Shown here one piece after another: positions 1-64,000 of a DNA stretch of 64,000 nucleotides (the first letter of the stretch is position 1; each line of letters begins with the position of its first letter). The DNA is from Lytechinus pictus (Eukaryota). A program made the translations under genes and the position numbers. Location of the stretch: NCBI RefSeq assembly GCF_037042905.1, contig NC_087251.1:4962001-5026000 (forward strand), given 5' to 3'. A model generated the notes under the pieces. It ran no database searches and was not told the DNA's origin. It saw only the letters and a program-made list of their open reading frames with translations.

Positions 1-2649
1 CCTTTTTTACACAGAATTGAGATCAGTTTTCTTTCCCTACCATACCACCAATCATCTTCATACAACCATCACCTACCGGATCTCGCTTGCTCTTTTACAT
101 TTTCTTTTCCCATATGTTTGTGCATCGACCAGATGTCCATGTATTGATCTTTTTTTCTGTTCTTGTTAGAAAGAAGAGAGACATAAAAAGAAGAGATAGT
201 GCGCTTTCCTTCCGTTTTTCCCAGCGATAAATTTGCCAAATTCATCGATAAAACCCAGGTCTGACTTTGGCGGTGATGAAGGAAGGCAAACTGTTCCTCC
301 GTGCTATGGCTACAGCTGATGAGGCCGAGAGCGCCCCCGAAGACCCCGGCTATTTCGATGAGAGAAGTTGTCTGTTTACTTTTGAAGACAATCCAGAGCT
401 AGCACCATGGTTATTAGATTAGTTGGCTGCTCGTAATATCAGCCAGATAGCAATGTCGTGGTAATCGTGCGCCTAGGGTATTAAGGGAGGAGAGAAATAG
501 GGAGATGGAGAGAGGTAGACATAACGACGGGACGACATCCTCATGGATGAAAATGATGAGGGAGATTAGAATAGGGCGGAGGAGGATGGGGATGAGCATG
601 ATTAAAGAGATGGAATCTAGGGAAGACAGACGGGAAGGATTTGGGTCGCTCTGATAGGAACGTGACCATAATCTTAATTTCTTCTTTTATTACTCTTTGT
701 TTCTTCTTTCGCCCCTCGTCGTTGTATAAAGCTCGAAAGAAGTTATCCGGAACACGAGTGAAATCCCCCAGTTTTGATTGGCAGGACCATCGTAAAGATG
801 AATGTATGACATAAATGCTTTATTCATAATCAATTCGTGTCCCAAACTTTTAAAACAATTCCAAAAATAAAAAGTGGTCGTTTTATTGACCGTTAAATCA
901 TTAGATTATTCTTGGTCAGGGCAGATTGATTTTCTTACATCTCTTTTCTATGATTAATTAAATTTTCCCATTCATGAAGTTTATCATGGAAGATCACTTC
1001 CTAATTCGTTTCGATGTTTTCTCTTGCTGAAATATTATGGCGAAATGTAATCAATACGAAATATTACAAAGTTGGAAAGTTTACTTTTTCGTATTAAAAC
1101 CAACATCACTGCATAATTTCCTCGCATGAATAAAATGTTTATCTTTTGTTATTGATAATTGAGGAATAATTATGAATTGAACAAATTAATGGAAAATGAA
1201 TTGTGATTTCAACTTTTAAAATAATGAACAATACGATATATAACAAGTTTACATCATGAAACAAAAACATGAAGAAATCCACCCATACACACCCTTACAC
1301 ACCCTACCCACATTCTGCCAGCATCTGTCTGATATTCTTAAAATAATGCTACCGCCCTCTTTTAGCAGACGATCCCATGGGATAACTTCCATCCACGATT
1401 CGATTACTGATAAATGAAAGCATTTCTTTTACACTGGAATAACTCACTTTTCCGACATTTTCATTCAAAAAAATCGTCTAAATATTGACTTATAGCTGAT
1501 AGATCTCGTTCTATCCGTTGATTACCTGCTTGACTAGATAAGTGAGGTCATTATTAGGGATGATATTCGCTATTATGATAAAAATGACTAAACCACAATA
1601 ATGAGAGAAGAGGAAAGGTTCTCTATTGTCTATACCGCGATGAATACCTCTCACAATGAATGCGAGCCAGTGAACATATTCAAAAGGACTTTTTCAAATT
1701 TTAACAAGTTTTGATGCTTTTAACAGCCATTTGTCTGTTATTCCGGCCATTGAGCAGCTAAAATGGAGAAATGTAAAGGAACAATAATAAGAGAACGTGA
1801 ACGCCACTTGTTTCACAGCACCGCGCCTTTTATCAGAAGAAGTGAGAGTATAGGATATTCTGGTTGAAATCTCTAGCGGTATAGGTATACCAAGATCGTC
1901 AGAGCACCCCTAGCTGGCAGCAGGCAGGCAGGTTGGCATGAACGCCACAGACAGACGATCGGTTGCATTGGGGCAAATCAGGCAGAAGACGAAGGAAAGT
2001 GGCGCCGTGGGTTGCCCGTTATACATGCCTCCAAAGTCCCGCTAAACCAGTAAATGAGACCCCTGGGAATACCATCGCTTCCTTTTTAAAAAGAGTTCAG
2101 ACTGATTCCTTTGATCCATCTAAAAACATGTATATAGATGACATGAGTTGATGTCTCTGTCGTATCGTACACAAACGAAACAAAATTAGAGCATCTATTA
2201 AAAAATCAGGCCTTGTGAATTGATGTAACGGCGGTTGATCGTATTCAGCCTATTGTTCATCAAAGTAGAGGATGAATTGGTGTTTACGTCTAACCCTTTT
2301 AAAGCCATTAACTTTTCAAAGGTTTTAATGTCACTTCTTGAAGTAAAGTCATCTCCCTCCCGCTGTGTCTTATAAGAGCTTCTAAAATGGTTGATAAAGA
2401 GTGCACAGCTAGTTTTAACACCATTTCAAGTGCATGTAAAGTACTGTATACTTAAGGTCTGGAATGGACCTTTTAACTTTTTCTTAATATTCTTCATTCG
2501 GATCATTTCTTTTGTCCTTATTTGAAATAAAATTTTGAAAAAAAAAGGATAGTTTCTTGCTGACAATATTCGTTTAATCCCCCCTCACTTCTACGACTCA
2601 ACCACTTTACCTATTCATTTCTCTCTGCCCATATATATATATATATATA

Positions 2650-2789
2650 AGAACAAGACAGAATACGGTACTCGGTAGGCATCCTGACCACAATAGTCTG
2701 TAATTACAGACGCTTCTGACGAAGTCTTATTAAAGACGAAAGCTAAAGCTAAAATGGTGTCCTGCACCATCTTTTGAGTTGGCCTCATC

Positions 2790-2792
<3 letters not shown>
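2650..2792 (+). mobile_element. Short hammerhead-containing element (Penelope-like/retrozyme-like) embedded in a (TA)n microsatellite
   Basis: 143-bp GC-richer segment flanked by (TA)n at 2631-2649 and 2793-2831. It contains the hammerhead, a 16-bp palindrome gtctgtaattacagac (2696-2711) and a hairpin atggtg-tcctg-caccat. Confidence 0.6.
2712..2749 (+). ncRNA. Minimal type I hammerhead ribozyme motif
   Basis: Helix I 5' GCTT (2712-2715); core CTGACGA (2716-2722) plus one extra A; helix II GTCTT-atta-AAGAC (2724-2737); GAAA (2738-2741); palindromic mini helix III AGCT; U16.1-A17 at 2744-2745; helix I 3' AAGC (2746-2749), complementary to GCTT. Confidence 0.75.
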
Positions 2793-2829
<37 letters not shown>

Positions 2830-3509
2830 TACACCTAACTTGTACCTTTTACCTTTCTATCTTTTCTTTTGTTTATTTTCGTATAGATTTTTGCCAGCGT
2901 ATATCCCGACTCTAAATCACTCCATTCAATGAGACAATACCTTGTTTACTTCTTGAATATATCAAGACAATAGAATGTCAACCCACCTTTTTCTTTCCCG
3001 CTTTTTCTTTGAAGAAAGAAGACAAACGATTTTGGATGAGAGAATCCCAAGAGCAAACTAAAGCTCTTACTCCACCCACGAAGTTATTGTTTATCATCAA
3101 TCCCTTACTATCCCTCACTCTCTCACAACTTTACTTTCCTTACCTCAGTTTTACCCCCCCCCCCCACAATATTCCAATAATTGTACTGTCAACATGGCCA
3201 ATACTGTTCATTTACAGTATATCATAGTCATTTATCACATTTTACTTTCTATGTTATTTTCCTTAAGTCATTTTATTGGGGACAATTTTTTTTTAGATAT
3301 CAGTACTGATATTTACTTCACATATACACACCCCTATTATCCACTCAGAACCCTTCTCTCTCTCTTTATTTTTATATTTTTGTGTTTTCATTTAAAATAT
3401 TACAGCCCTCATTTATATAAATATATTCTGGTAATCTTGATAAAAGTTCCTATACTTTCACGACTCATTATACGAACGTAAGTAACTCTTCATACATGTA
3501 CAGAATATT

Positions 3510-23914: not shown

Positions 23915-24887
23915 AAAAACAAGTGGAGCACCTCTGGCAGTCTCGCCTGCAATACGCGATTCAATATAGCAGCAGTAATGACTCTGAAAATGACTATGAA
24001 ATAATTATTTAAAAAAAACACCATTCATATAATATGCTACTACGTTCATTGACCCTAAATGACATTTGACCTTGATGAAGTGTCATTTGACACTTAATCA
24101 AGTGTCACGACTTGTGCAAGATAAGCAATTATACTGGATTACCCCCATGTCCACATTATTTTCATTCATAAACTATACTTTCAAAGTTATGATAGCAATT
24201 CAACAATTACCTACAACATTGCCAAAGTTCATTTACTTTTAATGACCTTCGACCTTGGTCATGTGACCTGAAACTCACACAGGATGTTCAGCGATACTTG
24301 ATTACTCTTATGTCCAAGTTTTATGAACTAGATTCATAAACTTTCAAAGTTACAATGGTAATTCAACAAATACCCTCAACATGGCCAAAGTTCATTGACC
24401 CTAAATGACCTGTGAACTTGACCATGTGACCTGAAATTTGCACAGGATGTCCAGTGATACTTGATTACTTTTATGTCTAAGTTTTATGAACTAGCTCTAT
24501 AAACATTAAAAGTTATGATGGAAAGTCAACAATTACCCCCAGCATGCCTAAAGTTCATTAACCTTAAATGACCTTTAACCTTGGCCATGTAACCTGAAAC
24601 TCGGACAGGATGTTTAGTAATACTCATTACACTTATGTCTAAATTTCATGAATGTCCGTATACTTTCTAAGTTATGATGACATTTCAAAAACTTAACCTT
24701 AGGTTAAGATTTTGATGTTGATTACCCTTATGTCCAAGTTTCATGAACTAGGTCTACATACTTTCTAAGTTATGATGTCATTTCAAAAACTTAACCTTAT
24801 GTTAGGATTTGATGTTGACGCCGCCGCCGTCGCCGTCGGAAAAGCGGCGCCTATAATCTCGCTCTGCTATGCACGTGAGACAAAAAA
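23915..24887 (-). mobile_element. HINE/DINE-1/Tsp/pearl-like non-autonomous (Helentron-type) element with internal tandem array
   Basis: A-runs at both ends (T-runs on the minus strand); left end aaaacaag; subterminal inverted repeats gtctcgcctgca (23940) and tgcacgtgagac (to 24881); partial terminal hairpin; (gcc/gtc)n microsatellite near 24820; internal 163-bp repeats. Confidence 0.75.
24044..24818. repeat. Tandem array of about 163-bp units (about 4 copies plus a partial duplication)
   Basis: Anchor gccaaagttcatt at 24221 and 24384, with variant cctaaagttcatt at 24547; spacing is 163 bp. The first unit is about 20 bp longer. Confidence 0.9.
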
Positions 24888-25680: not shown

Positions 25681-26695
25681 ATGGTTACTCCGGGCTGAAA
25701 TTGATGTGATTTGAACAGATAAAGAAAAGTGAGACAAATAAATTGAAAATTTGATTAAAATCGGACAAGGAATAACAAAGATATGACATTTTAAAGATTT
25801 GCATTATTTCGATGAAAAAGTTCTGTGTATTTCTTCATGAATATTCAATGAGCAAACTGATAATGTCATGTCCCCACCTGTTCTTTTGTATTTTATTATA
25901 TGAAATTACATTTATTCAAAAATTCCCCCAAGAACTAAAATACTTGGATTGACAACTGATTTAATGTATTAGGTTTTCATTGCTGCAACTTATTTTATCA
26001 TGAGGGAGACATATCATTCAGATTCGTATGGAAAAAATGAAATAATTACGATGTCATGTATTAATATAGAAAAAGAAAATTGGAGATGTGACAAATAAGT
26101 ATCAAGAAAAGTAATCATTCTCTTCAAAATTACCAGTGTAGGATTAATCTCGAAAAACCAAAAACAAATTTTATAAGGGACGGCGGTCTCTATATAGGTA
26201 TTCAATTATTAAATTTCCTTACCCGTCAATTAGATCAGTTAATGCCATCGACTCCTAACTCATCTGCCGGGGGGGGGGGGGGGCTAGAGAATTTCTATAA
26301 TTTCTCTTCGCACTGCGGTGTTACGTAGTTTTACTTATCATTGTTTTTAATTTTAATTATGTATGTTTTTTATATTATGTGTTACTGTAATACTTTTTAA
26401 TATTTTCGTATTGTCTCACTTTTACATGTTTTTTAATGTTCACGGAATTGCTGAAAAGCAGTCTGTTATGACTGAATGTAAGTTTTACCGTGATTAAATA
26501 AATACAATACAATACAGTACATCAGCTCACCTAATAAATATTCATGACGACGAGTATATAACAGCTTTCATAAGATATTGCTAAACTATAAAATTCAATA
26601 ACGGTATTTGTTATCAGATTTTGATGAAATTTTCAGCATTTTGCTGGGTGCATTTTTTTTTATTGGATATAAATATTTTCAACCCGTGTACCCCT
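25681..26695. mobile_element. TTAA-AGG (Kolobok/T2-type) MITE, third family, interrupted by an insertion
   Basis: TTAA (25677-25680) then atggttactccgggctgaaa; right end tttcaacccgtgtacccct. The right copy of the inner inverted repeat of 25830-25876 is split between 26081-26093 and 26520-26550. Confidence 0.7.
26094..26519 (+). mobile_element. 5'-truncated LINE 3' end nested in a MITE
   Basis: T-rich UTR-like sequence; terminal stem cacgg/ccgtg (26441-26492) enclosing cagtc/gactg; then aataaa and a (caata)n tail. Confidence 0.6.
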
Positions 26696-33242: not shown

Positions 33243-36200
33243 TTATATATATATATATATATATATCTTATTTCATTATTATATCATCGATAGGTATTAT
33301 AATGTTTGTTTTAACAGTATGAATTTTACTGTATAGGTCTAATTGTGCATAGATATAAGAATAATTTCTTTATATTCATTTCACATTTCAATTTTTATGA
33401 CGATATGCGAGAGACTTGGAGGTAAAAAAATACAAATAACATTAAATTCAGTAACCAAAATATTGCATTGAATTTATATAATTCGCGTATAGTGCGAACA
33501 AAATGTGTACTATGCCGATAACAAGAAAATAAATTTATATTCTTTGTGCTTAACATATCGATCATGCTCAATAATTTATGAGTTTTCAATGTATTCATAT
33601 ATTAATTTGTAAAGTTATGATATTTCATTTGATATATTTGATATATATTTTATTTTGTATATGAATTGATCAGAAGTTGTTAGCAAATTAAAACTTCTTA
33701 ATATAAAAAAATGCTAATTTTGATAACAGAGGCATAAAAAGTCAGATTCTGAATATGTTTATGAATTTCATCTCTTTATGTAATATAAAACTAATCAAAT
33801 CGGAGGTAATTATATTTTCGTTGATTTAATTCTGATCATGGTTCTTTCTGTATTACATTTGGACACATTCGATGAAATTTTATTTTCAAGTCGCGTCGCG
33901 TCATCTTTCCGCTTTCCGCCGATGTTAAACAAGTCAGATACACGACTGACAGAATATAACACTTCGAGATTTGAATCTAATATCTCTGCTTTCTATCTTG
34001 TTTCTTTCTTGTTACTATCCCAACTAGACCAAAAGCGATCGATTTTGCGATCAGTCAGTCGATTGCAGCCCCCAGGCCTGAGTCTTGTGGGGTAAGATGT
34101 TTCAAGAGAAGAAATTCAGTAGCACGATAAAAACAAGGACATGAAGAAGGTTCTCCAATTCTTGGAGTGGGCGCCATTTTGAAGATCGTGCTGTGCAGAC
34201 GGAAAAACCACGAAACTTTGCCGGTTTCATTCTATGTCAATCAATACTAAGCGACCTTGGTGAAATCTGCTACCATTTCATTTCATCAATAAAAAAAATG
34301 ATCATCTTCACTTTCTCTCAAAGGCGCCTATAAGCATCTTTCTCCGACATGCCTTTATCAACCCCTTTCTCTCTCTTTTTCTGAGTGCGAAGGAGGTAGA
34401 AAGGGAAAGTGAGAAAGTCTCTCAATTCCCTGGTTATAATTATGAATACAAAAGCATATTATGATCGCAACACACGATTTTAAGATGACCTACTTTTGAG
34501 GACTTGTAGATAAAGAAAAAAAATATTTGCGACCCGGCAAACTTATTTCATCTTAGTTTCTCTTGTCAGAAAGATCACTTCATAATTCTTCCTCTGATTT
34601 ACGGGTACCTTGTTCATCAGCTCTCTGGAGAGAAGGTGGATTAGTTCTCCCTTTTTTGGCTCACCAGACGATATGAAAGTCAGCGACAGACCGCCACCAA
34701 GCAACCGACAGGGGAAGCAGTTTGAAATCGGTCCAAAAACCAGAAAGGATTGAAGCTTGCTTGTTTTTCAACAGGCTTCAGCGCTTCGTAAAAGGAGAAT
34801 TTCGTGGACGATTTCAGCTCAATGGATCCTATTTAGCTTAAGAAAACACCATGGATGGGCTGTTGACTTTGCAGATAATCAATAAACATGGTTTCCAATT
34901 TTATGGAAAATACTACAGCCGACCTGATAATCTATTGATGATAGAACAGAATATATTTGAGATGAAGATAAAATACAAAACAACAACAACAACAATCATG
35001 GCTGTATGCAGCTTGATGTTGTAATTCTGACAAATATTTTGCCTTCTTCTCATTTTACACCAGAGACTGTAATATACAGGTGAACATTCCTAATATTTTT
35101 GTATGAGCTTCTGAAAGCCAGTGTATAGTGTTGATCAGTTAATAAAGTAACAAAAAAAAAACCTAGACCCGCAATACAACTATTTTCACCAAATTACTTT
35201 CAGGAATTATGGCGCGCCCCTTTTCCTCCTCGACTCTAATTTCGTCTCCCTTTTTCCCGCCAATACGTTCATTGTCATTCTAGCTGGTCGTCTGCTATGT
35301 CGTCGTATGGTCACGTATATCGGATGTAGGTCCGTCTCGCTCAAGTCTCTCTCTGTTCCGACCCCAAACCATATCACACTCGATGCTTTTACTATAGGGG
35401 ATTCTCTCACATGGATCCCACGTCTCATCTTCCTGCTCCCCTTCCCTTTTATGGCTACCCTCATCTCAAACCCTGCCCCAAAATCCGTGAACGTTCCTTT
35501 CAAAAGTTTCTGAAGATCAAAATGGCCACTGTTATCGATAATACTGAATGTCTGAAGGATTCAAACCTGACCGGTGTTAAGAATTTTAGGCAAGATTTGT
35601 CGCTACGACAGAAATGTATATAGAAGCAGTGCTTTATAAGAAATGAATGCAAGACTTACCGGTTTATGATATGGTCACTTAGATGGATAGCAAATGGAGC
35701 ATGTGGAACTGGTGACAGAACAGCAGTGTAATGGCGATTTTCAACCTTCCTTTTTCTCTTTTCTTTGCTGATTCTTTTTTCTCTCTCCACTTCGGTTATA
35801 AATTCGTCTGACAGCCTCCAAAAGGAGATGTAGAGAGAAGCAAAGGATTGTGTACAGAGTCGCTATGCATACAGTCAACTACGTTGTTCTGTTTGCTCTT
35901 ACCTACGACAAGTCTACCAGACAAGTTTGTCCTCCCTCCATCCATTTTCATCCTCACATTATTTCTTTCAAAATATTCAAAATTGAAAGAAGACATGACA
36001 ATGATATAATGTCCATCTCATGCCCATGTATCTGGCCTGAACTACAAGGACAGCACCTCTCTTTCGCGAAATTGACTTGCCTTTATGGATGACGAAAAAT
36101 GAGCGAATGTTACGAAAGTTTTTGGCGGTCATATTTTAGGCTGAAACCCAAACCGGCCATTTTCTCTGGTTCTATTTGTCAGCAAACCATTGCGCCATTA

Positions 36201-37431: not shown

Positions 37432-38030
37432 AGGTCAAGTCCACCCCCAGAAAATTGTTGATTTGAATCGATAGAGAAAAATCAAACAAACATAAACGCT
37501 GCAAATTTCATCGAAATTGGATGTAAAATAAGAAAGTTATGACATTTTTAAGTTTCACTTATTTTTCACAAAACAGTTAAATGCACAACTCAGCGATACG
37601 CAAATGAGAGGAGTCGATGATGTCCATCACTCACTATTTCTTTTGTTTTTTATTGTTTGAATAATACAATATTTCCATTTTTACAAATTTGACAATAAGG
37701 ACCAACTTAACTTAACCATAAACTGTTAAAAATAATGGTAATTCCACATGTTCAGGGAGAAATAAAACTTTGTTTCACTTGACAAGGAGGAGAAAATGAG
37801 AATATTTCATATAATAAAATACAAAGGAAATAGTGAGTGGGTGACGTCACAGTCTTCCAATTTGCATACCAGCCAGGATGTGCGTATAACTGTTTTGTGA
37901 AATTAAGCGAAACTTTAAAATGTCACAATTTTCTTATTTTACATCCGATTTTGATGAAATTTTCAATGTTTTGCTTGTTGGATTCTTCTCCTTTTTTTCA
38001 AATCAACCTTTTGTTGGGTGGACTTGTCCT
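37432..38030 (+). mobile_element. Intact TTAA-AGG (Kolobok/T2-type) MITE, 599 bp
   Basis: TTAA on both sides (37428-37431 and 38031-38034). TIRs aggtcaagtccaccc / gggtggacttgtcct extend into long imperfect inverted arms. A second copy lies at 50676-51253. Confidence 0.9.
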
Positions 38031-38354: not shown

Positions 38355-39606
38355 TAAAGCAAATGTTGTGGGGCTTCAACATTAATTGTTTCATATGATT
38401 TGAATTACATGGTAATGAATCGAATTAAGGGACTTTTTTTTTCTTCAAATTCGTCATTCGTCTGTATTTTTCCTCTCAATTGCACTATTCTCTGTCAATA
38501 TTTACTTAATTACTGCGTCTTCTATTTCACCTATATTTGGTAATAAATCAACCTGGGTCTCAAAGTTCATTTTTATCATGCTTTATGAATTAAGAATATT
38601 TTCACACAACGCTTTTTCGGTTGAAATAATTTTCTGATATCTTTTTCATTTATAATTTTCCATTGGTTTTGACATTCATTACTTTCACCATATTTCTTTC
38701 ACCACCAGATCCTTCGCTCACTTCTCTCTACTCTGTATACTACACAATGCTCCATTTTTTGTATTATTCACACCCAACCTCGAAATGAATGTTATTTGTC
38801 ATTCAAACTCAGTCCCTCTATTCTCTTTCTTTCCACTCCATGTCTATCTCCCCCTCTCTCTCTCTCTCTGCCTATGTCTTCTTACTTTAAGATAAAAAGC
38901 AGTAAAAGCCTGATTCTTTTCATACCGTAGCCTGCTTGATATGCATCGCCCAAGCTGCCCGGTCCGTAATGTAAATTTGCTCAGTTCTACCGGGCTTGAT
39001 AGCAGCCACCACGTTAAAGTGCCACTCAGAAACATTTCACAAGGAAATGAGACAAGGTCTGGTCTTACAAAGGACCTTCAGAACCACCCTTCTTTATTCC
39101 GTTTCTTTCCCTCTCATCAAACTCCCACCTGACAAGAAAGTTCAACTCACCTATTCATCAGTGCACCTCCCTAAAAAAGAGAAGATCCCTGATTTTCAAG
39201 TTCAGCGTCGATAAAGAGGAAAATGGTTCGAGTGACAAGGAGGGGGGGGGGGTGGGTTTAGCTAGATTTGAAGGTCATATGTCAGAGTGCTACTTTAAAG
39301 AAGCGAGTCTATGGTCTTTGAATCCGGTTGGAGGCATGTCATTCAAGGCATAACACAATTAGCGTAGCAAGGGGAGTAAACATAGAACATGAATGAATAT
39401 TATATATGTGTGTTATTATTGCACGGAGATAACCAGTGAAAACATTGCCGTCTTCTCTACGACAATGTTCGAATAAAAGGACATCAAATTATGATGCTAT
39501 GCGAGAGGAGCAAATCAACTATTATATCTGCATGAAATGAGTGATATAATTTGAATGCGACTTTCTAAAATTAAATTCGTTTTAAGATTTACTATGTCAA
39601 TTAGTA

Positions 39607-39772
39607 CATTCTAAGTAATGAAGTGCTAATTTAGCACTTAATGTCCTTGTATAGTGACTGCACTTTGAGTGCTGATTTTGTAGTTCAAATTTGAATACCT
39701 AAATCAGCACTCAAAGTGCAGTCACTATACAAGGACATTAAGTGTTAATTTAGCACTTCATTTTTTAGAGTG
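39607..39772. mobile_element. Fully palindromic CAC-type MITE (fold-back), TA flanks
   Basis: Arms of about 83 bp with a 44-bp perfectly complementary core and a self-complementary centre ttcaaatttgaa. TA at 39605-39606 and 39773-39774. Confidence 0.9.
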
Positions 39773-41939
39773 TATGGGTATAATAATCACTTCTTGTTTT
39801 TTAACATAATTTGGAACAAATTCTTTTCATTTCAATCTCTATATCACTAATCCCTTACCTGAAGAGAAAGTATATATGTTACCTGTAATGGGTGGGAGCG
39901 CAAAACCCTTTGAATATAAAAATATTACTCTGTTTTTCCTTTTTCGCGGTCTCGCGCCCCTCAAAGTGCCGACCAGGGCTCCGTAACTTAAAAGTTTGCA
40001 ATCAATCGCTAAATACGAATGACCGATCAAGATCATTGTTGCATGCACATTTTGTTTAAAACACTGACCGAGAACCAATCAGTGCGGTTTTTTTCATATT
40101 CGCGATTCATCGCAAACCTTTGTGTTACGAGACCCGGGTGATTTTATTTAAACTCTATTATAAATCATAAATAGATTGACTGTTAAGCATTTTAGTTACT
40201 GCTTTAAATTTTTATCTTCTGTTACTTGATATGACAATTTTTCTGAAAAGAGTACAATTCAGGACTTCTTCGCAAGACCATTTTATCTTCAGAGGAGCTG
40301 TTTTGGTTATTCATTCATATTATGTAGTTCATTTGGGGGGGGTCCAAGAAAAAATCCCTTCGAAAGTCATTGGCGTTTTTATCGTTCTATCACAATCTCC
40401 GATTATCTATCGGCTTGATTGTAAAGCGGTTACCATGACAACGGCCTCCAATGATGGAAGATGAGCTAGACATCTTCTATTTTATTCGATGGGTAAACAT
40501 TCTAGGTCTGATAGAACGTTGGCCCGCTCACCATTGTAATGAGCCATTTTACTCCTTACATTCTTTTACATTATAATGAATACCAAGAACTATGAGGGAG
40601 ACGATATCATACTGGAAGAAGTATACTCATCTTATATGCAGTATATCAATATTATGTTTATTCCTAAATGGTCATTCATGCATTTGCTTTTATTTTTCAA
40701 ATATCAGCCAAAGATCAATTATGGATTTGAAAAATTCGTATTCTAGACAAATATATTTTTATCAGAATCTATGTGAAGTCACATATAATGCGTATGACAG
40801 ATGTAATCTCTCTGAATAGTTAACATGTTGGAGTATAGTTAACCTTTAATACCCTAATTTTCACTAATATGACACTTTTCTGTGATACAATGTTGTATAG
40901 TACTGCTGGTCGAATAATATGTGGGTTTTTTTTTAATTCGTCGTTATTGTAACAAGTTGTTTCCTGTAAATATTTGCAATCCGACATTTTACCACACTGA
41001 CAGTACTTTTAAGCCATGTTTAATTTAATTCAATTGAATTGAAGTGTCATAATAATAGAGAAACGATGCACATGTATTACAATGTGTACAATCGTGTAAC
41101 TTGCCAGAATGTATAAGCGGATTAATTAATTGATTTTTTTTTTACATGTGTTTTTCCATATCTTTTGGACTTTCTTGTGTAATTCTTTTTTTTTAGTCCA
41201 TCCATATCTTATTGTCTCTATTTAATTCGCCTTCTTGTAATCCTTCCATGGTCACACGTTCTCTATCTTCTTTATTCATACATCCATCTCTTATCCCATG
41301 CCTCCCATCACGTCCATCTCCAAATCCCTTTCCTTCCCGCCTCGCTCCTCCCAACAACCCATCCGAGACTTCCCCCAAACACTTCTCGTTTCCGGCTTCT
41401 CGTGCCCCGCGAGACGAGACAATGGCCCTACCAACCTGGGTGACCTCGCCAAAGTTACCATCCCAGCTTCCGGTTTAATCCTCCTAGGATCTTTGTACGT
41501 TCCAGGATCATCCTTCATAATGATTATCATAATTATTCAACTTTTCATCCTGTTAACTTATGCAAAGACGGTGTCTGTGCAGGATAATGCGGCGGTAATA
41601 TAAGCTGATCCAAAATCACACGGTCATGCGTGCATGCTTTTTAACGAAAACACAGGCACAATATCTTCCTTACGGGTCTTTTGCAGTACTTTTTAACCAA
41701 ACATCTTTTCTCTCTAAAATTTTAACTCATGTGATTTGATTTATACGATAAAATACATCAAATTGTTCATTATTACATTAATATGTATTCCTATATTTGA
41801 CTGATTTGTTTGCCCAGTCAAAATCTGAGTAAGCAATCATAATGTATACTTTATCAAAAATAAATTTATATAGTGATAGTATATATTTATCCCAATTAAT
41901 GGCTGATATATAGTTAAATATTAGTTTTACCTCTTTATA

Positions 41940-47100: not shown

Positions 47101-48074
47101 AATTAAGTTTTACGATCAAGTTTAAGTTCTCAATCCTACAAAGACTGCGTCTGAGAATTCTATTCATCTTTTGTAAAAACAAAACCATCACTAGGAGCAA
47201 ACAAATGAACGAACAGAATAGGTGATCAGTTAAAGCAGTGTAATCTTTAATACAGTCGGTTATTGTGTTTACGGTTAAAGCAAAGTTTCGTAGACTAGCT
47301 CTATTCACCACAGTAATCCAATACTTGACTACCACTGATCTTGTAATTTATGACCCCAAATCCCTTTTATATAGTCATTCATACACTTGAGACAAAACGT
47401 CATCTAACATTCGATTTGTTCTATATTTTAATAACCCGATTGTTGTCTACCGTAAACAATAACTACTTAATATGTTAATAAACGTGATGTTTGCTTTTGT
47501 TTATCATTGTTTCATGTCACTGTTAAAAACAATAAAAACAGGATTAAATACACTGTTTTCTCACAGAATGTGATGCTCAAAAGACACGACCTAAGTCATC
47601 TGAAATGTCTTGAATTAGACCAAATGACTCCGCATCTATTGGCCTGGTATAATCCATCAATCCAGGATCAAAAGAAAAGTAGTGCCCGTTTGCAAGGCAT
47701 AAATCATTATCGGGCCCCTCGTAAATATCAAAACTATAGGTCCTCTTGTTAATTACTTTAAAAAATATATGCCTTCTATTATCAGTCAGCTGAAAAGTAA
47801 GGTATCACAGCCATAATTAAGCTCTAAACAAGTGGAGTTAGATTTTTTTGCCAGATTTTGGGTAAAAAATAGATATATATTGTAGGTATATATTATAAGT
47901 GATATAAATGATCAAATTTCATACAGCAATGTGTGGCGTATAGCCTACAAAGTATTTTGTGTTTTTAACCCATCAAAACCTATTTATTCCCCTTCTAACC
48001 CAATATTTGGTAATCGGTTTTTATGGTTTAAACAACCGTCAAAAATTAGTTAATCATTCATATACTGATTGCAT

Positions 48075-48819
48075 TGATTTAGCCAACGGTTTGGTTTGGT
48101 TAACTTGGCTCCTGAAGAAGTCCATATTGTTGCGAGTACAAAGATGTAACAAGCAATGATAGGATTGATATTATTACGTAACATTAAACAATAATGCTCT
48201 ACCCAATAAATTTGATATGATATCCATTTCAATGGTATATCCCTTTTTGCCAGAGAAGCTACCAATATAGAAGTGATAATGATATGAGGTCCAGACAAGA
48301 CCTACATTTTAGTTCGCTAACTGCGCTCGCTCATGAAATGTTTAATCGATATAATTTGAGTAATGTGATAACGATTCTCATATATTATTTATTTAGCAAG
48401 ATGTCTGACTGCCCCCAGCATACGTTGAATATACCCCCCCCAAAAAAAAAAAATGATGCGGACCTAATCGGTATTTGTGAAGGAATCTTGTGTTCGAACG
48501 AAAATATTCCCGTCTGTTACTCACTTTGCACATTGGTACACATGATGTATGTTGCATAAAAGAAAAGTGGCATCTTTTTGGCCAGAGTTTTCAATGTGTT
48601 ATTTACCAATGACATAACTTGGTGTGCCAGAGTTTTTATGGCAAAAAATGTATGCAAGGCCCATGTTGATGACAGAAATGTTATTTGAATAATGTGTCCA
48701 AGAATATATCTTGATTGCGAGTCATGTTGGTCTCGCACGACCGCCCAAATCTTTGTACTCGCAACAATATGAACTTCTTCAGGAGCCAAGTTAACCAAAC
48801 CAAACCGTTGGCTAAATCA
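48075..48819. repeat. 71-bp inverted repeat with a 603-bp spacer
   Basis: 48075-48145 versus 48749-48819, 70 of 71 complementary. The ORF track shows DLANGLVWLTWLLKK on both strands. Confidence 0.92.
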
Positions 48820-50675
48820 CTACAGCATTGTTTTGTATTTATCAGTTTTAACCATGACCACACTGCTCCTTAATGCCTTATATGAGTGTTTTTGTTTTTT
48901 GTTAGTTATTACCGTATATCGAATGTCGGGATGAGATTCTGAATTATTTTCGAATGATTTATATCAATAGGATCATTGGGAAATTTGAAGATAACATGAA
49001 GACATTTTATCAAGAGCGTGTACACTGTAAGAAACAAAATGAATATTGTACTTCAACCAATATGCCAAATCTGATGACATTTACATGATTTAGTAGGTGC
49101 AATATACATTAAATTTTAAGTGTACTGCTTTTCAGTGAAAAGGTTCGGAATTTCTGCTATGAATAAAAAAGTGAAAGATTAATGTAATACAATATTTCAA
49201 ATGACTTAATTCTGAAAGTGAATGTAATGCCAGGATACCTTGCAGCGTGACGTCCATTCATGTTTCATTTCCCAACACAGCTCTCTATTTATTGGCAGTA
49301 CTCAAGTGATGTACGCCTCGTCATAGTGGTCGCCCTTACTTCATTTTTAGCTCACTAATTCCACTAATTATTGGACCTTTGTACACTAGCAAACATCACT
49401 TAGGTGCGAGGAAATCTTAAACTACCCCATCGAAAAGAGCAAACACCACCCTGATTTTCTATAGCAATACTGATATACAAGACCTGGTGTGTAGGCTTAT
49501 GCATAAAGAATTTGAATCAGTTTCAGAAAGATTGAATAAAAATCACATAATATAGGGGGATGAACAGGTGTGTATGTTGGGTAAAATATTAAGCAAGAAT
49601 AATTTTCAGTGGTAATCTTTCACACACTGGGTAAAATGGGTAAAATTGGCGTTATGTTTATCCTGGGCCAAATTAGTCAAATTCTTTCTTTATCCAATAT
49701 GAAAAACTCCTTTTTTAATATAAATGCGAAGTTTCTCATTAACTTAATTTCAACCGTTTAATAACCTTCCAATAAATACAGACAACATCTTCTTATTTTT
49801 CTGTTTATTGATGAAGTTTTCCTCGATTTGACACAAAAAGAGTAAAACAATACTCTGAGGGCCCTATATAACATTCAATATGGTGCAAAACGTACGCCGT
49901 TGATTAATTCGGATCTAAATTAACACAATAAATAGTCCCCATTTTAAAACTAAATTTCCAAGGCTGTATATGAGGCCAAGAAAAAAAGTTTATAACTGGA
50001 ACGATCAAACCTCTAAAAAAATTTCCAAGACATTGACAAAATTAATTTGCTGTGCGGCATTTTAGGACCAAAAATATCTATCATTTTATGAATGTGTAGT
50101 TCTCTGCATTTCAGTTCAGTAAAAAGTAAAACATATGATGCCTAAGTAAAAAATATGATGCCTAAAACTAGTATTATTTTTTAAGACAGTATCAAATTAG
50201 AAATTTATAACACAGTAAACAAGGTTACAATACATATCAATATCCAATTAATGATATTTCACCTTGACTTTCTTATTTTTTATACTATTGAACCTAACAT
50301 TGACTGAAAAGTATAGGAGACAGGCAAATCATTAAGTTATTATCTTAGCATTATAACAAATTTATTATACGATCGGCATTTCTTTTATAATTTTAGTCCT
50401 ACATTACATAATGATGACCATGATGATAATAGGGCTCTGGTTATAGTGGTTTATGGGCACTCTTTCTTTAATCTATTGGATAAACAAAAATAAGGCTTTC
50501 TTATTGGGGGTTCGATTCCCATGTTGTTTTCAAACATCAGAAAAAAGAATGAAAAAACGGGTCAATATTTACTCAATCTGAGCTTCAACAAAAAGAAAGA
50601 GGGGGGGGGGGAGGCAGGGGGTAATGACATGATCATGGCGTATCTGTAGGGGTCAAGGTAGTATGCATCGGTCAT

Positions 50676-51253
50676 AAGTTGATTTGAATAAAAAGAGAAA
50701 AATCCAACAAGCATAACACTGACAATTTCATCAAAATCGGATGTTAAATAAGAAAGTTATGACATTTTAAATTTTCGCTTAATTTCATAAAACAGTTGTT
50801 TGCAAATCGTGATCAGTATGCAAATGAGGAGACTGATGACGTCATCCACTCACTATTTCTTTTGTATTTCATTATATGAAATGTGAAATATTCTAATGTT
50901 CTCCTCATTGTCAAGTGAAACAAAGATTAATTCCTTCCTGAACATGTGGAATTAGTATTGTTTTAATACTATATGGTTCAGTCAAATTGGTCCTTATCGT
51001 TAAATCTGTAAAAAATGAAATATTGTATAATTCAAACAATAAAAAAAAAAAGAAATAGTGAGTGATGGACATCATCGACTGTCTCATTTGCGTGTCACTG
51101 AAATGTGCATTTAACTGTTTTGTGAAAAAAAATAAGCGAAACTTTAAAATCTTTCTTATTTTACATCCGATTTTGATTAAATTTTTAGCGTTTTGCTCGT
51201 TTGATTTTTCTCTATTTATTCAAATCATCATTTTTCTGGGGTAGACTTGACCT
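50676..51253 (-). mobile_element. Inverted copy of the 37432-38030 MITE, left terminus lost
   Basis: Ends ctggggtagacttgacct-TTAA (51254-51257); the body aligns by eye with the reverse complement of 37432-38010. Confidence 0.88.
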
Positions 51254-56295: not shown

Positions 56296-56331
56296 TATTC
56301 ACCAAGTGGCGTATACGCCACTTGGTGAATA
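56296..56331. repeat. 36-bp perfect palindrome
   Basis: tattcaccaagtggcgta|tacgccacttggtgaata, with no spacer. Confidence 0.95.
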
Positions 56332-60300: not shown

Positions 60301-62787
60301 ACCAGACCTTCCATTCTGCATCTAACGGAGGGCATCATCAATCCTTTTGCTCAAACTGTTCGTCTTCGGTCAGACCAAGATTTCATTTCAAGTCAAGGAA
60401 TCCTGGGGGTTAGCTTGATAGAGTCACAACACTCTCCAATCATTACTATGTTCAAGCAGGCACGCGTAGCTAAGAAACTAAATAGTTATTGAGGCACGAA
60501 AATGATTAAATCGAATATTAGTGGGGTAGGGTTTGAATGTCTTCTGTTGGAAGCTATTGGATTTCCTTCACTTTCGTGTTTAATGGCTGCTCCATCAAAA
60601 TCAAGAAACTCACCAGCTTTAAATCAAAGGTCTTGACTTTTATTAAATGATATTGCAAACCATGATGGATCTTTATTGAAACAAACTTTTCGATTTCAGA
60701 TTGTTTCATTATAATATGACCCATTCAGTGTGGTTTTAGAGGTCAGAATGGATTCTTCAACGTGTATAACGTTATATCACACTATGATAACTTTGAATTT
60801 GGTCTCTATCTATAAATGTAGTCATATTAATGAATCTGGCGAAATGTGTTTCTTAAGTATTTTTTTTTTCTTTAGAATTTTCTATCAAAATGTATTTCCA
60901 ATTTAAAACGTAGATTCATTGTCCTATTTGATTATGGAAATATCCTGAAGTCAATGTTGCATTCAACCTCAACATTAATCGGAGATAGAAAAAAGGATAA
61001 TTTATGTACCATCTTTCTAACCAAATAGAAGAATCTTATATAGCTTTGGAAAGTTACTGACGTGTAATTGGACATTGTGTTGGCGACAATGTGCCATGCA
61101 GCAATTACTTAGTTTGTGAATGGGCAATGGGTAAAGCTTTCCGTAAGATTGTATATATTATTACGTTCAGTTTCGGCCATGATAGCATGGAATTCATGCT
61201 AGACTTAATGAAATTTTGGTCCTTAAGGTTAAGAGTAAAATTTGTTTTATTATCCATGTTATCCCTGGTTTAAATTTCAAGAACAACTTATTTTGCAATT
61301 TGTACATTAACAGACCCCCACCCCTTCACATAATACATGTAATATGTATACCCTTCGTCACCTTTCCATTTCAACGTCATTTGTGTTCATTCTCTATGGG
61401 TGAACTACCGTAACAAAGACATTTTTAATTCTGTCTCCAGTTTTCTTCGCCGTTGTCCATAAATTCATTGGCAGGAGGTACTGGATATGCACCACGTATG
61501 TTACCATTACCTCGCTTATATTGCATACGCCAAGACGATGGATGAGAAAGGGCGTGCGTTTAAATTCGCACTTAAAACTAAAAAATGAAAACGAGGGAGA
61601 GGGAATTTGTCTGGGGAGAGCAGCTACAATAGTCTTGTCTTACTGGGCAATGAAATATTTATGCTAACAGGGGCGATAGGTTCCTCGTCCCGCGAGACGT
61701 CCTAAGGATGCCCAAAGCGGCATCCAAATTCGCCACCCCGCGCGCGTACATCGTGCGCCTGACTGAGCGAGCGATTGCACTGGGTATACGCTGCGCATCT
61801 TGATAAACGTTCGATAGAAGTTGAATATTGAATTATTATGAACATCACATAGCCGATCTACACACATGAAGGCGAATCATAAAAATATAATAACAATGCA
61901 GCATCATGAGATTATTTTCATGATTTGGTCTTATACATGATATTTCCACTATGGTGCATGATTTTTACTGAACAGCCATGCCCGGCATGTCCGGTATGAA
62001 AAGGCTGCACCCTTCAGTTGGGTGCAATTGTGCACCCTAAGTGAAAAAAGGGGGGAAATTCACCTGTTTGTACATGTTTGCTTTGAAAATACCCGTTTTC
62101 CTCATTAAAAAAGTTGAAAAATTGTCTTAAAGGTACCACTTTGTACAATGCGTACCCTTAATTGATGATGAAAATGTAGCAATCTGCATGCACCCAAACG
62201 GCTGCAAAAGTTCGTATGTTCCAAATTTCCGACTTTTGCCCTTGGTTTGTAATAGAGACAACTTGGTCATGTTAGACACATGTCTACCCTTCAATCGACA
62301 GTGTCAAATCTGCTATTAAGTTGGTTTATTCGATTTCAATGGTTTGATAGGTTTATAAGACACTGTTTACCTGTAAATGGTATACGCAGAAATTGCTTAG
62401 ATCTTTTTGATTTTAGCAAATAATAAAATCAGTTAAAGGTTATACTGATCACATTTTTTGACACTTATTGATCAATAATTTATTGATGTGTCATCATAAG
62501 ACAAAACATTAATTAAAAGACACATTTTTACTTTACCCACATGACCTAGGGAAGGGTTGTTTTGCAACCATTGGATAATATAAGTATGGAATGACGCCCA
62601 ATCAGTCACATAATGAGGAACTATATGTAAATTACATTGAAAATACAGATAAAGATGCAGTACCCCCCCCCCGACACACCCACACTAACACCTACCTACC
62701 TATAGTATGGGGAATGTGTATTGCAGTAATTGAGTCACTCTTTGACTTACGCCATGAACATGATGAAGTTCTTTCCGTATTACCTAC

Positions 62788-63192
62788 GGTAAATTGCCAA
62801 TTCGTCTACTGCCAACTCGTCCACTCACCACATGGTCTACTTTAATTTAGTCTAATGCCATTCCGTCCATCAGCATTTCGTCCATTTGGTCCATTATTTT
62901 GATTCAATCATCACTTTGTCTAATACCCATTTTGTCTATTACCATTTCGTCTCATAACCAGGTGGTCATATATATTTCTTTTTCAGTCATTTTGCACAAT
63001 TTAACACTTAGTCCACTTTGAACAAATGGTATATGGACTAAATGGCTCTTGGTCCAACTAGTTATTAGACAGAATGGCATTAGATTAATGAAAGTAGACC
63101 GTGTGGTGAGTGGGCGAACTTATGGTGGACCAAATGATAGTAGACGAGTTGGCAATTGGAGGAATTGACATTAGACGAATTGGAAATAAACC
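62788..63192. mobile_element. GGT...ACC-terminated MITE with 15-bp subterminal repeats
   Basis: Ends ggtaaattgccaattcgtcta and tagacgaattggaaataaacc. Long inverted arms ccactcaccacatggtctacttt...tctaatgccattc versus gaatggcattaga...aaagtagaccgtgtggtgagtgg. TSD not resolved. Confidence 0.8.
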
Positions 63193-64000
63193 TTATCTAC
63201 ATGATCTACGCCCTCTGTCTCATGTCACCCCAAAGCTACACTGAGCCTCCCCCGGCCTTCCCCTCTCTCCCTCTCTTTCTCTCTCATCTACATCTTTCTT
63301 AATATAAAAATGGTCTTTATGACATCGTTGTGACACTCGGCTGTGACACTGTATAAATTTATTTCATAGACCTATTACAAATAGGTCCATGTTCAATCAT
63401 TTTGATTTGGGTTTTAAAAAGCATCAGATAAAGAAAAAGCGAAGCAGCTCACATTATATTCGTTATAACACGTTGGGTCCGACCTATCCTTCATAAACCA
63501 TTGTGATCTTTACCTTCTTTCAATATGACCAATGCAAATCTGCATGTCCTTACTGAATATATTTACCAAACACGAATCCTAAAATGGGACAATATTAGTT
63601 CATAGGGTCCTTCAGTATGAATTCAGCTATAATGCTGAACCTCGTGACAAAACTGTATTTGCAGTGGCTTTCCCCGGGCTATAGAATTCGGGTAAACGAA
63701 GGGTTTGTTTTATACAGCAAAATAAATACATACTTCTTGACGGTTGCTTGTACGTTTCCAGCTTGGGTCAAATGTGAATGGATATAGTAGAGGGATGGGG
63801 GAAGGGGTTGACTACATTTTGCAAGCTTCCTCGAATATGCGTAAAGCATTTGTCGTAGATATACTGTTAACATGGTTATTTTTTTAATGACAACAAATAT
63901 TTCCACCCTTTCAAGGAATTCCATCATTCATTCTATAAGAATTACAAATGAATTGAATTTAAAATGAAATGTATTTATAATAAAAACAATTATAAAAATG

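Follow-up and report, generated by a model that had tools for sequence, protein, structure and literature searches.

A 143-bp non-coding repeat unit with a Penelope-like minimal hammerhead motif, set between (TA)n tracts

The window, by which we mean the whole 64-kb stretch of DNA analysed, contains a 143-bp unit enclosed by two (TA)n tracts, as the first-pass annotation had described it (Table 1). A second copy of the unit was not found in the window. It has no open reading frame, its sole ATG 3' of the ribozyme (2754) running into a stop after 7 codons, and it has no tRNA-like head that ARAGORN (0 genes) or Rfam (none) could detect, although a decayed head could escape such detection. Neither the remnant of a Penelope-like element (PLE) coding region nor a frame with reverse transcriptase (RT) and GIY-YIG endonuclease was found in the 64 kb (tblastn best E 0.34), no gene was identified around the unit, and Pfam returned nothing above cut-off for 11 of the window's 60 long frames. 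The window also holds several MITE-like non-coding elements with long terminal inverted repeats (37445-38018, 50678-51241, 25705-25928, 48070-48824 and 62785-63195), two of them about 80% alike, as well as a degenerate 163-bp tandem repeat of about 3 copies (24044-24818), a near-perfect 170-base palindrome (39605-39774) and a perfect 36-base palindrome (56296-56331). An open frame of 117 residues on the minus strand (35207-35560), in a GC-richer stretch, reads like a coding exon; Pfam found nothing above cut-off in it.

Table 1. Coordinates of the features at the locus, in window positions
Feature	Position	Strand	Basis or remark
Left-hand (TA)n tract, probably belonging to the target site	2631..2649	.	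sequence
143-bp non-coding repeat unit	2650..2792	+	stops in all three plus frames; one copy in window
7 bases resembling a local duplication	2666..2672	+	absent from other copies with visible 5' part (by eye)
Stretch similar to the hammerhead 5' half plus helix II; may be an internal duplication that has decayed	2684..2712	+	alignment
Perfect palindrome of 16 nt, predicted to form a hairpin directly next to helix I	2696..2711	+	pair probabilities 0.87-1.0
Minimal type I hammerhead motif with a 4-bp helix I, a 5-bp helix II and an AGCU helix III that has no loop	2712..2749	+	
Additional A separating A9 from G10.1, a hallmark of the minimal hammerheads of PLEs	2723..2723	+	sequence; PMC4209133
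Predicted cleavage site, 3' of A17	2745..2746	+	hammerhead numbering applied to sequence
Predicted 6-bp hairpin downstream of the ribozyme	2754..2770	+	folding; most other copies keep the hairpin with two G.U pairs (changes at 2766 and 2767)
Right (TA)n tract	2793..2831	.	sequence

The hammerhead motif of the unit is real and correctly located. Its conserved core, helices of 4 and 5 bp and AGCU palindrome are all where they had originally been reported, and a match of equal quality appeared in 0 of 300 shuffles. Helix I consists of GCUU (2712-2715) and AAGC (2746-2749); between its strands lie C3 to A9 as CUGACGA (2716-2722, C3 at 2716 and A9 at 2722), helix II (2724-2728 with 2733-2737, closed by a 4-nt loop, G10.1 being 2724 and C11.1 being 2737), G12 to A14 (2738-2740, G12 at 2738), A15.1-G-C-U16.1 (2741-2744) and A17 (2745). 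The layout given by the first-pass annotation stands for the core and for helices I and II, but it left the extra A at 2723 unmentioned. On both strands of the 64 kb a loose type I descriptor, which yields 0.17 matches per shuffled 64 kb, has this motif as its single match, and a pattern written for minimal hammerheads finds one match in the window and none in any of 100 shuffles. Rfam listed no hammerhead among its 14 matches up to E 10 and had 0 matches at the gathering score.

The predicted fold of the 143-mer gives pair probabilities of 0.88-0.92 for helix I, 0.81-0.99 for helix II and 0.0 for helix III, so that on this prediction helices I and II form while helix III, palindromic as reported, is absent from the monomer. 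Cleavage is accordingly predicted to be poor for a single copy. The fold of the whole 143-mer is modestly better than that of shuffled sequences (z -1.85, 13 of 200). Six bases stand twice in a row at 2739-2750 and create a second AGCU at 2747-2750. We considered an alternative monomer fold that uses this second AGCU, with a Hydra-like helix III and a cut after 2751, and rejected it as the main fold, as it is 7.3 kcal/mol worse and has a pair probability below 0.01.

The closest known counterparts are the minimal hammerheads that Cervera and De la Pena 2014 (PMC4209133) located in PLE terminal repeats and found as thousands of mostly single copies per genome. These have a short helix I, a base between positions 9 and 10.1, a G10.1-C11.1 pair and palindromic positions 15.2/16.2; they were uncleaved as monomers and weakly cleaved as dimers, and the alignment includes examples from sea urchin and sea star (PMC4209133). 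The core of our motif (CUGANGA-H, G10.1-C11.1, GAAA and UH) agrees with their consensus, and the likeness extends to the type I arrangement, the short helix I, the extra base after A9, the loop-less palindromic helix III, the AU-rich 3' flank and the occurrence as mostly single dispersed motifs. Because the extra A at 2723 belongs to the PMC4209133 consensus, it strengthens the PLE reading, and the earlier identification of a PLE-type minimal hammerhead needing a second copy to form helix III fits both that consensus and the monomer fold. The unit departs from the rows shown there in the G-C order at 15.2/16.2, which is the rarer form (2 of 44 rows), and from the published minimal hammerheads in its 5-bp helix II, in having a hairpin rather than a U-rich stretch before helix I, and in that no adjacent open reading frame was found.

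A (TA)n context is likewise familiar among PLEs. Craig et al. 2021 (PMC8557442) report a preference for (TA)n in 26 of 27 Hydra-clade families, two of them from sea cucumber, and cite a microsatellite or (TA)n preference for Neptune and Naiad as well; the available text of a killifish Neptune paper says nothing on targets or hammerheads. Like the Hydra-clade elements (PMC8557442), the unit has a hammerhead near its 3' end, then a short tail and then (TA)n, it has 5'-inverted copies, and the group is present in echinoderms; by eye, the tail of the sea-cucumber Hydra-1 has in common with it a hairpin and a 6-mer before the TA. Unlike them it has neither RT nor endonuclease, and whereas helix III has 3-4 bp and a loop of 1-3 nt in 26 of 26 Hydra-clade rows (PMC8557442), the favoured register of the unit is loop-less. 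Minimal hammerheads, solo copies and (TA)n targeting have thus all been described for PLEs, and the family reported here joins a known kind; our literature searches returned nothing on the family itself.

Relatives were sought in sequencing runs of one organism, with the unit stripped of its flanks as query. Nine such runs were listed, three of them with words of the unit, and four of the nine were compared; the run index named no RNA holder, which says nothing about expression. The species of the runs need not be that of the window, though mismatches in the pieces recovered come to only 0 of 33 and 2 of 101 letters. Matches occurred in 3 of 514,112 contigs in one run (X1) and 6 of 478,486 in another (X2), and in 6 of 8,710,588 and 9 of 8,252,136 raw RNA reads, with about 6% of each run read. 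By their flanks the nine contigs sort into at least six contexts (X1 record 1 with X2 record 5; X1 record 2 with X2 records 6 and 7; X1 record 3; and X2 records 4, 8 and 9), and four reads of run X4, with two starts, give a seventh. These contexts, at least seven in addition to the window's own, bear out the earlier proposal of a dispersed multi-copy family. None of the copies recovered from the four runs is the window's own: depth falls to 0 at 2650-2669, where about 7 bases are missing from the other copies.

One context has an intact core, with two differences from the window copy, at 2766 and 2767. The core is broken in three others, one carrying changes at G5, G8, C11.1 and G12, another at G8, and the X4 copy a 6-base loss at 2737; three of the changed core places are CpG sites. 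Two more contexts show 2 differences each, one of which, from the depth sums, apparently lies in loop II. Of the listed changes none falls in helix I; the one in helix II belongs to a copy whose core is broken, and the loop is changed at 2729 and 2730. Among the run copies, which are few and too similar, no compensatory change was seen in helix I or II. In the flanking hairpins four of four changes keep plus-strand pairing as G.U, a weak signal in that half of all transitions do so and two pairs are linked. An apparent U3-A8 compensatory core in X1 record 3 was not counted, given that the 5' strand of its helix I is unpaired and its G8 change lies at a CpG. By comparison of the copies, these changes look like neutral decay after insertion. 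The X4 reads also carry A-to-G changes at 2708 and 2710, inside the palindrome, in four reads, and these could reflect A-to-I editing or a genomic variant or allele. X2 record 8 (731 letters, matching 2711-2742) is a diverged relative with only the ribozyme region in common; by eye, a pyrimidine-rich CAG stands directly before its helix I, and it may represent an autonomous PLE's terminal repeat together with its intron end.

The ends of the copies speak to the mode of insertion. (TA)4 or more lies within 10 nt of the 3' end in both of the other contexts with a visible 3' flank, against a background of 0.95% of window positions; letters beyond 2792 were not shown for three records, and one contig ended early. 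Together with both flanks in the window, these two cases uphold the (TA)n association first noted at this locus, in a small sample. Three contexts have a non-TA 5' edge to the match (X1 record 3 and X2 records 8 and 9, the matches starting at 2711 or 2717), and matches behind non-TA sequence count against a strict model of insertion as TA-in-TA. In the X4 reads a backward joint leads from 2698 to 2673, repeating only the 5' part and adding no second ribozyme, and the letters after the joint at 2698 start like 2650, which supports the 5' boundary. X2 record 4 opens with 2769-2792 in inverted orientation, followed after 6 letters by the forward unit from 2673; this is the inverted head piece known from PLE insertions (PMC8557442). 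Truncated, inverted and partially tandem insertions are therefore all represented, by the matches starting at 2711 or 2717, by X2 record 4 and by the X4 joint. A 5' end within about 10 nt of 2650 is found in three insertions (the window copy, the X4 joint and, presumably, X2 record 4), and different copies carry different 5' variants, as would suit a short unit that has subfamilies. Where the ends are loose, 30 letters of each were shown, and such copies may extend upstream into a longer element.

We lean, with limited confidence, towards reading the unit as one copy of a dispersed non-coding family with a PLE-type minimal hammerhead, likely copied into (TA)n in trans by the RT and GIY-YIG endonuclease of an autonomous PLE. 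The family carries the motif, has TA at its 3' ends, includes truncated, inverted and partly duplicated copies, and has lost the core in some of them. The 143-nt unit would be transcribed, and a PLE protein would nick (TA)n and prime reverse transcription close to a fixed position some 45 nt beyond the cut site; copying would then run to a fixed 5' end near 2650 or stop early, with any target duplication hidden within the TA. A lone transcript is expected to fold helices I and II and not III, and so to show little cleavage without help from a second copy or the PLE protein, and most copies would decay neutrally once inserted. The working model for this scheme is PAc, a Poseidon element of Anolis (Frangieh et al. 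2024, PMC11167929), for its AT-rich nicking, internal priming and protein-assisted cleavage: its endonuclease prefers AT-rich DNA, reverse transcription begins internally, downstream of the hammerhead, cleavage by the ribozyme required the PLE protein, in vitro insertion did not depend on the ribozyme, and no RNA-seq ends were found at the cut site. PAc is autonomous, with an open reading frame that starts inside helix II, whereas our unit has none. As it stands, the family is a further short addition to the PLE-type minimal hammerheads already reported in thousands per genome, and a further instance of (TA)n targeting; if the unit proved to be an independent, very short PLE passenger, it would define a minimal RNA template for copying by a PLE protein.

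The most substantial competitor takes the unit for the terminal repeat (its tail or a solo pseudo-LTR) of a longer PLE that is autonomous; either 5' truncation would have left it behind, or reverse transcription that started internally and ran to the 5' end of the PLE transcript. Most animal minimal hammerheads are single motifs thought to be truncated PLEs (PMC4209133), PLE reverse transcription does start internally and downstream of the hammerhead (PMC11167929), matches begin at 2711 or 2717 in three contigs, and the CAG before helix I in X2 record 8 resembles, by eye, the Drosophila Penelope intron end mapped at helix I (PMC4209133). The recurrence of the 5' end near 2650 in three insertions, the early stop after the ATG at 2754 and the lack of a PLE coding remnant nearby all point the other way. 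Because the 5' end recurs and the unit contains no open reading frame, we favour the short non-autonomous unit as the somewhat probable reading and regard the terminal repeat as possible but rather unlikely. That the (TA)n is instead a 3' tail belonging to the element itself, like that of LINE-copied SINEs, is very improbable: TA does stand at the 3' end of 3 of 3 copies with a visible 3' flank and is missing at the 5' edge of three matches, but it lies on both sides of the window copy, there is no tRNA-like head, and the inverted head piece and the hammerhead point to PLEs. Least credible of all is retention of the ribozyme by the host for processing a transcript of its own. The window copy has an intact core and its relatives lie inside longer, possibly transcribed contigs; against this, the runs did not yield the window copy, no gene was identified in its surroundings, the relatives decay at core CpG sites, and the monomer is without helix III.

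A solo monomer of a non-LTR retrozyme, with tandem arrays elsewhere that self-cleave, circularise and are reverse transcribed, is an improbable source, though solo monomers of such families are common and dispersed and the length of the unit lies within the reported range of 51-972 bp (preprint 10.64898/2026.07.22.740005). The unit resembles non-LTR retrozymes (PMC7229834; 10.64898/2026.07.22.740005) in being short and non-coding, with a type I hammerhead, a GC content below 50%, a proposed dependence on PLEs and solo monomers; it differs in that no tandem units or circles were seen, the ribozyme is minimal rather than canonical, reads are few and the context is TA. Animal retrozymes (Cervera and de la Pena 2020, PMC7229834) are tandem, form circles, are abundant as RNA and have hammerheads of the canonical type, in which the loops contact each other, whereas we count 15 reads in about 17 million, and the ends of the unit do not lie at the cut site. 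Tandem copies, for which the first-pass annotation had suggested a search, did not turn up: the window holds a single copy, and none of the 9 contigs and 15 reads has a head-to-tail joint returning from the 3' end to the 5' end. The reads run in both directions at very low depth, and among these 15 there was neither a circle nor a pile-up of read ends at the cut site. Small and circular RNAs are easily lost from such libraries, and TA-spaced arrays would break contigs. Li et al. (preprint 10.64898/2026.07.22.740005) propose that short hammerhead repeats arise from PLE terminal repeats, and observed cleavage in 1 of 9 dimers.

The 16-nt palindrome abutting helix I is not rare by its length alone, the window having 14 palindromes of at least 14 bases. 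For the overlapping stretch that resembles the 5' half of the hammerhead, 18 of 20,000 palindrome-preserving controls scored as high in a post hoc comparison. In folding models the palindrome could act as a hairpin stacking on helix I, or it could pair two RNAs. Co-folding of two monomers through the palindrome gains 12 kcal/mol, as any palindrome would, and pairing as a double hammerhead gains nothing over two monomers (-12.3 against 2 x -6.2). X2 record 8 seems, by eye, to keep a 4-pair stem with one double change and to lose the self-complementary loop, which favours the hairpin role. A more elaborate proposal would make the unit a self-contained 143-nt parasite of PLEs, its palindrome derived from internal duplication of the ribozyme 5' half and pairing two monomers into a trans double hammerhead that dispenses with tandem arrays; on the modelling above we consider this distinctly improbable, and our literature search found no such palindrome-paired trans-dimer. 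If it were true, palindrome-triggered trans cleavage would bear on the open question of what activates minimal hammerheads in vivo.

Scans of sequence collections for the hammerhead type gave 13 loci in metagenomes, 11 and 0 in prokaryote genomes, and 0 and 0 in viral contigs. None of the 24 belongs to the family of the unit (best blastn E 0.002, over the core only), and helix I reaches at least 3 pairs in only 6 of them, which suggests that many are chance or decayed matches. One metagenome contig (L002) holds an unrelated PLE whose RT frame is followed, 250 nt on, by a core of the same type, with a helix I of only 2 bp; in this contig (892-3956) and in L005 a PLE RT frame, a hammerhead core and GIY-YIG pieces are interleaved with long tracts of hexamer repeats. 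Eight contigs of one metagenome (L001, L003, L004, L006 and L009-L012) carry another family of hammerhead-like cores, many with a decayed helix I, and are probably DNA of the host animal. A well-formed minimal hammerhead with a 4-bp helix I lies beside a tandem repeat in a short contig of a sponge-symbiont genome (L017, 933-960), possibly a host contamination. In L007 (27-55) and L008 (45-73) a minimal hammerhead is followed downstream by TA-rich sequence and a long frame without a match in Pfam; the arrangement may represent the 5' end of a PLE-like element.
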